Shown here: in pieces, positions 21,564 to 23,721 of the stretch
Layout: every line of letters starts with the position of its first letter
Position numbering within the stretch: the stretch's first letter is position 1
From: Escherichia phage TM1
Length of the DNA stretch: 39,817 bases
Sequence record: MT808983.1
Strand: one strand, 5' to 3'
Program-made: the position numbers and the translations under genes
The notes under the pieces: model-generated
Told to the model about the DNA's origin: nothing
The model's database searches: none
The model's input: only the letters and a program-made list of their open reading frames with translations

Positions 21564-21587
21564 ACTAAACTATCACTATAGGGAGAC
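21564..21587 (+). promoter_or_regulatory. Phage-RNAP promoter (taaACTATCACTATAGGGAGACC), phi10 position
   Basis: Longest match to the T7 class III consensus downstream region (TATAGGGAGACC); precedes the major capsid gene. Confidence 0.9.
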
Positions 21588-21689
21588 CAATAGACAGGCT
21601 CAAGGTTTCCCCTATTACTTCAGTCCATACGGATTGGGCATACAGTAAGTAATAAACTTTATCTTTCAATTGAATAGGAGAATTATCAT

Positions 21690-22733
21690 ATGGCAAACGT
21701 TCCGGGTCAGAAAATTGGTACAGACCAAGGTAAAGGCAAATCTGGTTCCGACGCTCTGGCGTTGTTCCTGAAGGTCTTTGCTGGTGAAGTCCTGACCGCA
21801 TTCACTCGCCGCTCTGTAACTGCCGACAAGCATATTGTCCGTACCATTCAGAACGGTAAGTCTGCTCAGTTCCCGGTCATGGGTCGCACCTCTGGTGTGT
21901 ATCTGGCTCCGGGTGAGCGACTGTCCGATAAGCGTAAAGGTATCAAACATACCGAGAAAGTGATTACCATTGATGGTCTGCTGACTGCCGATGTGATGAT
22001 TTTCGACATTGAAGACGCGATGAACCACTACGACGTGGCTGGCGAGTATTCCAACCAGTTGGGCGAAGCTCTGGCTATCGCTGCTGATGGTGCTGTTCTG
22101 GCTGAAATGGCTATCCTGTGTAACCTCCCGGCTGCATCCAACGAGAACATCGCTGGTCTGGGTACTGCGTCCGTACTGGAAGTTGGTAAGAAAGCTGACC
22201 TCGACACCCCGGCTAAACTGGGTGAAGCAATCATCGGTCAACTGACCATTGCTCGCGCGAAGCTGACCTCCAACTACGTTCCTGCTGGCGACCGTTACTT
22301 CTACACCACGCCTGACAACTACTCTGCAATCCTCGCGACTCTGATGCCGAACGCTGCTAACTATGCTGCTCTGATTGACCCAGAGACTGGTAACATCCGT
22401 AACGTGATGGGCTTCGTTGTTGTTGAAGTTCCGCATCTGGTACAGGGCGGTGCTGGTGAGACCCGTGGTGCTGATGGTATCACTATCGCTTCCGGCCAGA
22501 AACACGCATTCCCGGCAACTGCTGGTGACGACGTTAAAGTTGCTATGGACAACGTTGTTGGTCTGTTCTCTCACCGTTCTGCTGTGGGTACTGTGAAGCT
22601 GCGTGACTTGGCGCTGGAACGTGACCGTGACGTCGATGCTCAGGGCGACCTGATTGTTGGTAAGTACGCTATGGGTCACGGTGGTCTGCGTCCTGAAGCG
22701 GCTGGCGCACTGGTTTTCAGCCCAGCGGCGTAA
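21690..22733 (+). CDS. gp10A: Major capsid protein (T7 gp10A homolog, 347 aa)
   Basis: GTDQGKG...LALFLKVFAGEVLTAF...KSAQFPVMGRT...HTEKVITIDGLLTADVMIFDIEDAMNHYDV...AMGHGGLRPEAAG, collinear with T7 gp10A. Confidence 0.96.
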   Translation: MANVPGQKIGTDQGKGKSGSDALALFLKVFAGEVLTAFTRRSVTADKHIVRTIQNGKSAQFPVMGRTSGVYLAPGERLSDKRKGIKHTEKVITIDGLLTADVMIFDIEDAMNHYDVAGEYSNQLGEALAIAADGAVLAEMAILCNLPAASNENIAGLGTASVLEVGKKADLDTPAKLGEAIIGQLTIARAKLTSNYVPAGDRYFYTTPDNYSAILATLMPNAANYAALIDPETGNIRNVMGFVVVEVPHLVQGGAGETRGADGITIASGQKHAFPATAGDDVKVAMDNVVGLFSHRSAVGTVKLRDLALERDRDVDAQGDLIVGKYAMGHGGLRPEAAGALVFSPAA

Positions 22734-22864
22734 GCACCTTTAGCCAACCTAACGTCGCTACAGTAGCGGCTGCACCTGAAGAGGAGACTCTAACTCCTCA
22801 ACAGAAAGCTGCGCGTACTCGTGCTGCGAACAGGGCCGCTAAACTGGCTGAGTCCAACAACTAA
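22712..22864 (+). other. gp10B: Putative -1 frameshift extension of the capsid gene (gp10B-like minor capsid C-terminus)
   Basis: U-rich stretch GGTTTTC at 22712-22718, 5 codons before the 10A stop; the -1 frame stays open for about 50 codons (GFQPSGVSTF...KLAESNN) and stops at 22862-22864, just upstream of the Tphi-like terminator. Confidence 0.55.
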
Positions 22865-22865
22865 T

Positions 22866-22908
22866 TGAAACCCCTTGGGTGCCTTCGGGTGCTTGAGGGG
22901 TTTTTTGC
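22866..22908 (+). terminator. Late terminator, analog of T7 Tphi
   Basis: aaccccttgggtgccttcgggtgcttgaggggttttttg; close resemblance to T7 Tphi (AACCCCTTGGGGCCTCTAAACGGGTCTTGAGGGGTTTTTTG). Confidence 0.85.
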
Positions 22909-22927: not shown

Positions 22928-23494
22928 ATGGCTCAATACATTCCACTGAATGCTAACGATGACTTAGACGCCATCAACGATATGTTAGCAGCTATCGGTG
23001 AACCAGCAGTCCTACAGCTTGACGAGGGGAACGCTGACGTCTCGAACGCTCAACGTATCCTGCATCGTGTCAATCGTCAGGTCCAAGCTAAAGGCTGGAA
23101 CTTTAACATCAACGAAGCTGCTGTCCTGACACCTGATGTCCAAGACAATAGGATTCGATTCTTGCCGTCATACCTTCGTGTAATGACCGCTGGGGCCACC
23201 AGCTACTACAGCAACATGGGTGGATACCTGTACGACCTGTCCACTCAGTCAACCACTTTCACCGACCCCATCACGGTAGAGCTTGTGGAGATGAAGCCAT
23301 TCTCCGAGATGCCTGTGGTCTTCAGGGACTACATCGTCACTAAAGCTAGCCGTGAGTTCAACGCTAAGTTCTTCGGTAGCCCAGAGTCAGAGCTATACCT
23401 TCGTGAGCAGGAAGCAGAACTCTATCAGCAGGTTATGGAGTACGAGATGGACACTGGTCGCTACAACATGATGTCTGACATCGGGAGGGACTAA
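22928..23494 (+). CDS. gp11: Tail tubular protein A (T7 gp11 homolog)
   Basis: ANAQRILHRVNRQVQAKGWNFNINE...YIVTKASREFNAKFFGSPE...MEYEMDTGRYNMM, collinear with T7 gp11. Confidence 0.9.
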   Translation: MAQYIPLNANDDLDAINDMLAAIGEPAVLQLDEGNADVSNAQRILHRVNRQVQAKGWNFNINEAAVLTPDVQDNRIRFLPSYLRVMTAGATSYYSNMGGYLYDLSTQSTTFTDPITVELVEMKPFSEMPVVFRDYIVTKASREFNAKFFGSPESELYLREQEAELYQQVMEYEMDTGRYNMMSDIGRD

Positions 23495-23721
23495 TGGCTA
23501 GTCACAACCTGAAGATTCACCGCCAGCACTTTGGTCCGGTACAGCTAGGTCTAAAGACAGCAGAGCTGAGACTTAACGACCGGGACTTTAAGGTTGGCGA
23601 TTGGCTTATCCTGAATGAGTGGGACAACGGGTATACCGGACAACAGGTAGCGCGTAAGGTTGTCCACATTGCTGACGTTGGTGACATCTCTGAAGGATAC
23701 GTCCTAATGAGTATGATTTAA
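23494..23721 (+). CDS. ASCH/DUF3850-like small protein (75 aa) inserted between the tail tubular genes
   Basis: LKIHRQHFGPVQLGLKTAELRLNDRDFKVGDWLILNEWD...YTG...EGYVLMSMI matches the recalled DUF3850 (ASCH-like) pattern; ATG overlaps the gp11 stop. T7 has no gene here. Confidence 0.65.
   Translation: MASHNLKIHRQHFGPVQLGLKTAELRLNDRDFKVGDWLILNEWDNGYTGQQVARKVVHIADVGDISEGYVLMSMI

Follow-up and report, generated by a model that had tools for sequence, protein, structure and literature searches.

Does gene 10A of Escherichia phage TM1 end where its annotated stop codon ends, or do some ribosomes leave the reading frame just before it and produce a longer, second capsid protein? A reading of the DNA made from the letters alone (hereafter the sequence-only reading) had proposed the latter: a U-rich heptamer, GGTTTTC, near the end of gene 10A would shift ribosomes into a −1 frame that stays open for about 50 codons and stops shortly before a Tphi-like terminator, as in the synthesis of minor capsid protein 10B by phage T7. 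We examined this proposal in the TM1 record (MT808983.1) and in related loci. The window referred to throughout is the whole stretch of DNA analyzed, 39,817 nt in length; the promoter, gene 10A, the slippery heptamer, the extension, and the terminator lie on its + strand.

Genomic setting of gene 10A

On the basis of nucleotide identity, the TM1 stretch, which has the size of a complete genome, is assigned to Kayfunavirus, the K1F-like relatives of T7 within the Studiervirinae. The gene 9-10-11 region is 96 to 98% identical to many Kayfunavirus records, and the closest record matches the first 25 kb at ~94% identity across ~90% of that length. Gene 10A, taken from the list of ORFs, occupies 21690–22733 in frame 0, encodes the 347-aa major capsid protein, and terminates with TAA at 22731–22733. 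Its product matches the Pfam family Gp10A-like (PF21703) over residues 60 to 342 (E 2.5e-104), and the annotated capsid genes of Kayfunavirus records are 96 to 98% identical to it. Because this domain stops at residue 342, one residue short of the proposed shift, a 10B tail would be appended to a complete capsid subunit.

Upstream of gene 10, a phi10-like promoter for the phage RNA polymerase (ACTAAACTATCACTATAGGGAGA) is located at 21564–21586. It matches the consensus for K1F promoters that the annotation of MZ726794 quotes at the homologous place, and a promoter is annotated at the same place in EcoDS1. Directly 3′ of the promoter, at 21581–21612, the leader can form a hairpin (GGGAGACC...GGTTTCCC) that resembles the stem-loop of the T7 gene 10 leader; its homolog in MZ726794 is annotated as a terminator. 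Downstream of the capsid region, genes 11 and 12 are separated by a 75-aa ORF (23494–23721) with an ATG that overlaps the gene 11 stop. An ORF of equal length at the equivalent position in EcoDS1 is annotated as an RNA-binding protein. T7 is not known to have a gene in this position.

A slippery heptamer and an open −1 frame at the end of gene 10A

Gene 10A closes with the codons CTG GTT TTC AGC CCA GCG GCG TAA. The slippery heptamer G GUU UUC, of the T7 gene 10 type, spans 22712–22718 and is identical to that of T7 in the same register: CTG ends on G 22712, GTT (Val342) occupies 22713–22715, and TTC (Phe343) occupies 22716–22718. As in T7, the heptamer sits on a conserved ...GHGGLRPEAAGA(L/V)VF motif. 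Four sense codons (AGC CCA GCG GCG) separate TTC from the stop, and the position given to GGTTTTC by the sequence-only reading is thus confirmed. Its estimate of the open frame was also accurate: counted from 22712, the −1 frame comprises exactly 50 sense codons (GFQPSGVSTFSQPNVATVAAAPEEETLTPQQKAARTRAANRAAKLAESNN) followed by TAA at 22862–22864. Because the −1 frame is closed upstream by a TGA at 22694–22696, a productive shift is confined to the 37-nt interval 22697–22733, which ends with the frame-0 TAA, and GGTTTTC is the only conserved slippery motif within this interval. Past the 10A stop, frame 0 encounters three more stops (APLANLTSLQ*), and the +1 frame is closed 10 nt farther on.

A shift at the heptamer is predicted to yield a 10B protein of 391 aa (343 + 48), 44 residues longer than 10A. 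The 10B-specific extension (22718–22864), delimited by translation and by homology to the T7 tail, comprises 48 codons (QPSGV...AESNN) and the TAA. The junction is predicted to read ...GALVF|QPSGV..., since the slip follows the decoding of Val and Phe in frame 0; the junction peptide offered earlier, ...ALGFQPSGV..., has to be corrected accordingly to ...GALVF-QPSGV.... Predicted tail-derived peptides are QPSGVSTFSQPNVATVAAAPEEETLTPQQK and AANR/AAK/LAESNN; the predicted junction peptide is ...PEAAGALVFQPSGV..., and its tryptic form has ~48 aa.

GGTTTTC occurs twice in the window when both strands are counted (3.9 expected), with a single copy on the + strand, and by our own estimate a random frame stays open for 50 codons with a chance of ~9%. 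Neither the heptamer alone nor the open frame alone is significant. Its frame and position, together with conservation among relatives, place the feature far above chance.

The extension evolves as coding sequence in the −1 frame

By BLASTP, the TM1 tail and the T7 10B tail are 60% identical (E 1e-11) and share the core ETLTPxQxAARTRAAN. Differences between the two fall on the first, second, and third −1-frame codon positions in the proportion 11/12/28, such that the third position carries 28 of 51. In this comparison, pS in the −1 frame is saturated and pN is ~0.3. Across six diverged comparisons, T7 included, the −1 frame shows pS of 0.66 to 0.88, pN of 0.22 to 0.45, and no stops, whereas the other two frames give dN/dS >1 and 3 to 12 stops over the same columns; the protein-guided alignment used somewhat favors the −1 frame, and a DNA alignment gives the same register in the core. 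These substitution patterns, measured against diverged relatives, show the tail to be under purifying selection and to behave as a coding sequence in no frame but −1. The sequence-only reading had proposed conservation of the −1 frame in related phages as a test of itself, and the frame is indeed conserved. Within Kayfunavirus, the tail is too conserved for an estimate of selection; relative to locus L028 it has 10 differences, with dN/dS ~1. At the nucleotide level, the TM1 tail is identical to that of locus L003.

The tail is rich in Ala, Arg, Lys, and Glu. Pfam gave no match to the 48 aa at E 0.01, in the same scan in which tails of relatives matched Big_2. With this result and a length too short for an Ig fold, we classify the TM1 tail as not Ig-like.

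Slip site, extension, and terminator co-occur among relatives

The comparison took in 81 distinct related loci, drawn from 80 IMG/VR loci plus GenBank records. The motif NGTTTT(C/T/A) is present at the conserved Val-Phe in 55 of them, and the other 26 carry GTC, GTG, or GTA at Val; these loci are not phylogenetically independent, and the pattern recurs across several genera and tail types. All 55 relatives that have an extension downstream of this site carry the motif, compared with none of the 26 others; among the 55, the extension of L009 is out of frame. A −1 ORF of at least 50 codons is found in 54/55 loci with the slippery site and in 9/26 without it (Fisher p = 4e-10). Of these nine, three continue by accident into gene 11, another three read across the terminator, and the last three have an alternative A_AAG site. 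Codon bias was considered as the cause of GTT TTC and rejected: GTT is used at this Val in 55/55 loci with the site versus 0/26 without, but only at 46% versus 34% of the other Val codons of gene 10. Five relatives in which the first base of the heptamer is A or C still keep their tails, and in L068 GGTTTTC is followed by a tail of the T7 type.

The L009 locus (IMGVR_UViG_2974615076_000001) has a 1-nt deletion (TAAG to TAG) at the position that corresponds to window 22731–22735, which places an otherwise intact tail in the +1 frame. The same locus has an extra T in the U-run of its terminator; for this reason, the frame break probably reflects an error in sequencing homopolymers, and L009 is unlikely to be a natural knockout of 10B.

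The position of the terminator follows that of the stop codon in use. In TM1, the Tphi-like intrinsic terminator, a hairpin with a U-run, lies at 22867–22906 and has a G+C-rich stem of 17 bp (−25.2 kcal/mol) with CCCC at 22871–22874. It starts 2 nt past the −1 stop, in agreement with the few nucleotides noted previously. The records of EcoDS1, MZ726794, and T7 list the homologous element as a terminator. In relatives, the terminator starts 6 to 14 nt past the last translated stop. Where both a slippery site and a terminator were found, this distance of 6 to 14 nt is measured from the −1 stop and amounts to 136 to 1424 nt from the 10A stop, with the exception of L009. In loci without a slippery site, the terminator starts a median of 13.5 nt past the 10A stop, mostly directly after it. 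Comparison of the two groups implies that a spacer separates the 10A stop from the terminator only in loci where that spacer can be translated.

Search for a stimulatory RNA element

The sequence-only reading had named frameshift-site and downstream pseudoknot prediction as a check of its proposal. The site is as described above; we detected no local stimulatory RNA. Folding of 22719–22800 and of the 60 nt 3′ of the heptamer gave z scores of −0.9 and −0.3 relative to shuffles, with no excess stability. In a search that explicitly covered hairpins, none was found at the usual spacing of 5 to 9 nt, the nearest stable one starting ~36 nt 3′ of the heptamer. The other extension classes have hairpins that differ in position and sequence. 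No Shine–Dalgarno-like element was detected 10 to 14 nt 5′ of the heptamer, the sole such sequence being GGTGG ~30 nt upstream, and a scan of the region with Rfam returned no match at E up to 1.

We also considered, and rejected, a long-range interaction between the shift region and the terminator. The 45 nt following the site were tested for duplex formation with the terminator; the energies are at chance level in TM1 (z −0.5), and likewise in K1F, T7, and 14 other loci. A fold of 216 nt has a z score of −2.4, with most of its stability coming from the 17-bp terminator hairpin. The CCCC element 3′ of the 10B stop is present in TM1 as in T7, a likeness of sequence. In T7, CCCC in a terminator >200 nt downstream is involved in frameshifting in a mode that is unexplained (PMC5009743).

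Among relatives, the distance between slip site and terminator ranges from ~150 to ~1440 nt. If the T7 terminator effect holds for all of them, this variation would rule out RNA pairing with the shift region at a fixed distance as its basis. A speculative proposal, to which we assign a low probability, is that the stretch from slip site to terminator is an exchangeable decoration cassette and that the terminator, if stimulatory throughout, would have to act by way of the short distance that separates the 10B stop from the mRNA 3′ end. The contents of this stretch do vary: on nearly identical Kayfunavirus capsid genes it holds either the 48-aa tail of the T7 type or a beta-rich module of ~95 aa, and in more distant relatives it holds Big_2 domains or a 477-codon ORF.

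Proposed mechanism and alternative explanations

We propose that TM1 very probably makes 10B by a −1 ribosomal slip at G GUU UUC, and that the product is a co-assembling minor capsid protein. A minority of the ribosomes translating gene 10 would slip back by one base at 22712–22718, the P-site tRNA-Val re-pairing from GUU to GGU and the A-site tRNA-Phe from UUC to UUU. Retention of tails by the five relatives with A or C as first base leads us to infer that the A-site slip on U_UUC would carry most of the weight. Slipped ribosomes would bypass the 10A stop and translate 48 further codons in the −1 frame to the TAA at 22862–22864. The resulting 391-aa 10B would co-assemble with the 347-aa 10A, its Ala/Arg/Lys/Glu-rich tail exposed on the surface of the head. 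By analogy with T7, Kvp1, and K1F, the shift would be ribosomal, its efficiency would be near the ~10% of T7, and 10B would be found in virions.

It is barely conceivable that the −1 ORF goes untranslated, as a relic or as a frame open by chance, and that the 130 nt from the 10A stop to the terminator are a 3′ UTR. The ~9% chance of a 50-codon open frame, the lack of heptamer enrichment, the restriction of most Kayfunavirus GenBank records to a 1044-nt CDS, and the out-of-frame tail of L009 would all suit such a relic. However, its differences from T7 would not then be distributed as 11/12/28, with the −1 frame alone showing a pN far lower than pS, and relatives without the slippery site would not lack the spacer and place the terminator a median of 13.5 nt past the 10A stop. 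The extra T in the L009 terminator run takes the force from that locus as a counterexample, and fusions to this very ORF in K1F are expressed on virions (PMC6277420).

Translation of the tail by a route other than ribosomal slippage is highly improbable, although the site does contain a run of four T, and the folding, pairing, and Rfam searches found no ribosomal stimulator. Independent initiation is excluded, as the −1 ORF (22697–22864) contains no in-frame ATG, GTG, or TTG and no + strand ORF of at least 30 aa starts within it; readthrough of the 10A stop is excluded by the further frame-0 stops downstream of the TAA. As for slippage by RNA polymerase, the runs known to cause it are much longer than four T. 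Moreover, the shift at this motif in Kvp1 and T7 has been attributed to ribosomal slippage (PMC2579914, PMC5009743). A ribosomal shift elsewhere in the 37-nt interval receives almost no weight from us. The candidate is a slip of a single tRNA-Pro on C AGC CCA (22718–22724), which lies inside the permitted interval, where C_CCA would allow A-site re-pairing to CCC and give the junction ...VFSP|SGV.... Yet this motif is missing from T7, from the Kayfunavirus loci with Ig-like tails, and from the majority of the other relatives with a retained extension, whereas NGTTTTY/A is present in all 55, and mass spectrometry of Kvp1 places the shift at TTTTCA (PMC2579914).

Diversity of extensions behind the slip site

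A group of Kayfunavirus-like loci (L007, L010, L015–L026, and L029; ~locus positions 1626–1913, corresponding to window 22718–22864) has a different −1 extension behind the same GGTTTTC. Their 10A C termini are 81 to 100% identical to that of TM1, and the extension is a beta-rich module of 93 to 96 codons (...DVTDWSLL...SRRTNSLYFKA...) with the terminator 6 nt past its stop. Pfam returned only a chance-level match for the ~96-aa module. The relationship of these loci to TM1 looks like the exchange of a cassette between slip site and terminator. One of them, L024, departs from the others from ~locus position 1800–1910 onward: the ~96-codon extension turns midway into hydrophobic sequence (EWFFLLKVRMIMFYLL...), and no terminator was found at the usual place, which suggests an insertion or rearrangement inside the tail.

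Ig-like extensions are found behind the same heptamer. In L032, L060, L064, L078, and L081, GGTTTTC is followed by extensions of 89 to 92 codons; those of L032 and L060 match Big_2 in Pfam (E 1e-8 and 8e-20), and the tails of L064, L078, and L081 are nearly identical to that of L060. One slip site thus serves both Ig-like and non-Ig tails. In L040 and L041 (L040 positions 964–2394), GGTTTTT precedes a −1 ORF of 477 codons with the terminator 12 nt past its stop. This ORF comprises a Big_2 domain and ~390 aa more, in which a GDS-like motif is discernible by eye only; Pfam found no match for the distal 387 aa of the L040 extension. If translated, it would be an unusually large frameshift-appended capsid decoration.

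Three loci (L034, L038, and L063; ~locus positions 1626–1925) have a nonslippery GTG TTC or GTG TTT and yet a −1 ORF of 92 to 100 codons. The L034 extension, the one scanned of the three, is Big_2 by Pfam. ACA AAG or GCA AAG is found 1 to 3 codons downstream of the Val-Phe in these loci, which suggests relocation of the shift to a lysyl A_AAG like that reported for T3 and phiYeO3-12.

Annotation and prior knowledge

Judged by its homologies, the feature represents the 10A/10B system of T7 within a K1F-like phage and is as such already well known; the TM1 10B site raises no new biological question. The GenBank record of EcoDS1 states that the region "may be translated via slippery sequence" and notes a "region of similarity to gp10B". 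We found no literature on capsid frameshifting under the genus name Kayfunavirus. The value of the present analysis lies in annotation, as most deposited Kayfunavirus genomes give just the 1044-nt capsid CDS. In OM867676, PQ133619, and the PRF-SP/STP-SP/CRW-SP series (L001, L002), the 1044-nt 10A CDS is labeled "minor capsid protein (10B)", with no joined CDS. This label on the 10A CDS is a systematic misannotation in automated Kayfunavirus submissions. The 391-aa TM1 10B should be annotated as a joined CDS (21690..22718, 22718..22864).

Comparison with known systems

Bacterial ribosomes perform a −1 tandem slip on a heptamer in E. coli dnaX and in IS911, as proposed here for TM1. Those systems use a canonical heptamer of the A AAA AAG type, with a Shine–Dalgarno-like element upstream and, on the 3′ side, a hairpin or a three-way junction. 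Neither flanking element was detected in TM1. The TM1 heptamer also departs from the strict X XXY YYZ form of the dnaX/IS3 type, with G_GU in place of X_XX; G_GU has been described as an intermediate case in this respect (PMC5009743). The TM1 site belongs neither to this class nor to the Ig-like T3 type.

In T3 and phiYeO3-12, as proposed for TM1, 10B arises by a −1 shift close to the 3′ end of gene 10 and carries a surface-exposed C-terminal extension. Their extension is Ig-like and their shift codon lysyl, whereas TM1 has a Val-Phe site and a 48-aa tail without an Ig-like decoration domain (Big_2 or similar, ~80 to 100 aa). Two phages of other genera, Kluyvera phage Kvp1 and Yersinia phage phiA1122, carry a tail of the T7 subtype; their poly-U/Phe site, TTTTCA, is like that of TM1. 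For Kvp1 10B, mass spectrometry showed the −1 shift at TTTTCA (PMC2579914).

Every defining feature of the T7-type 10A/10B family that is testable in sequence is found in TM1. The −1 programmed ribosomal frameshift of T7 was described by Condron, Atkins, and Gesteland in 1991, as cited in PMC5009743 and PMC1635266: ~10% of ribosomes shift at GGTTTTC, and the larger gp10 species, ~10% of gp10, has been shown in virions (PMC1635266), as also for Kvp1 (PMC2579914). G_GU is accepted there as the X_XX part, and the T7 10B tail is not Ig-like (PMC5009743). The T7 record annotates 10B as a joined CDS. TM1 and T7 have the identical G GUU UUC on the conserved Val-Phe, 3 to 4 codons before the 10A stop; homologous tails with the core ETLTPxQxAARTRAAN+A; and a Tphi-type terminator with CCCC in its 5′ arm just past the 10B stop. 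The arrangement does not merely mirror that of T7, as the sequence-only reading had put it, but is homologous to it. The tail has 56 aa in T7 and 48 aa in TM1, and the differences are found in its N-terminal half and last ~10 residues (STFSQPNVA and LAESNN in TM1; MLGVAS...EEASVTSTE and EAELAAATAEQ in T7). The distance from shift site to terminator is ~150 nt in TM1 and ~180 nt in T7, and the GGGGG run 3′ of the T7 10A stop is missing in TM1.

The nearest characterized system is that of K1F, the type species of Kayfunavirus. From the heptamer to the terminator, K1F gene10b and TM1 are identical at 191 of 194 nt. Two of the three differences are synonymous in the −1 frame, and the tails differ by one residue (A to D). 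K1F 10A ends ...SPAE and TM1 10A ...SPAA; in addition, K1F has no equivalent of the −1-frame TGA at 22694–22696, and its −1 frame is open further upstream. The −1 frameshift in K1F gene10 adds 44 triplets (PMC6277420), a number that equals the difference between the 391 residues of TM1 10B and the 347 of 10A. K1F g10b::gfp, with GFP at the end of gene10b, forms stable fluorescent virions (PMC6277420), and gene10b has since served as a display locus by which some of the capsid subunits carry adhesins (PMC13370021). The engineering of K1F for display of GFP and adhesins on a subset of capsid subunits should transfer to TM1.
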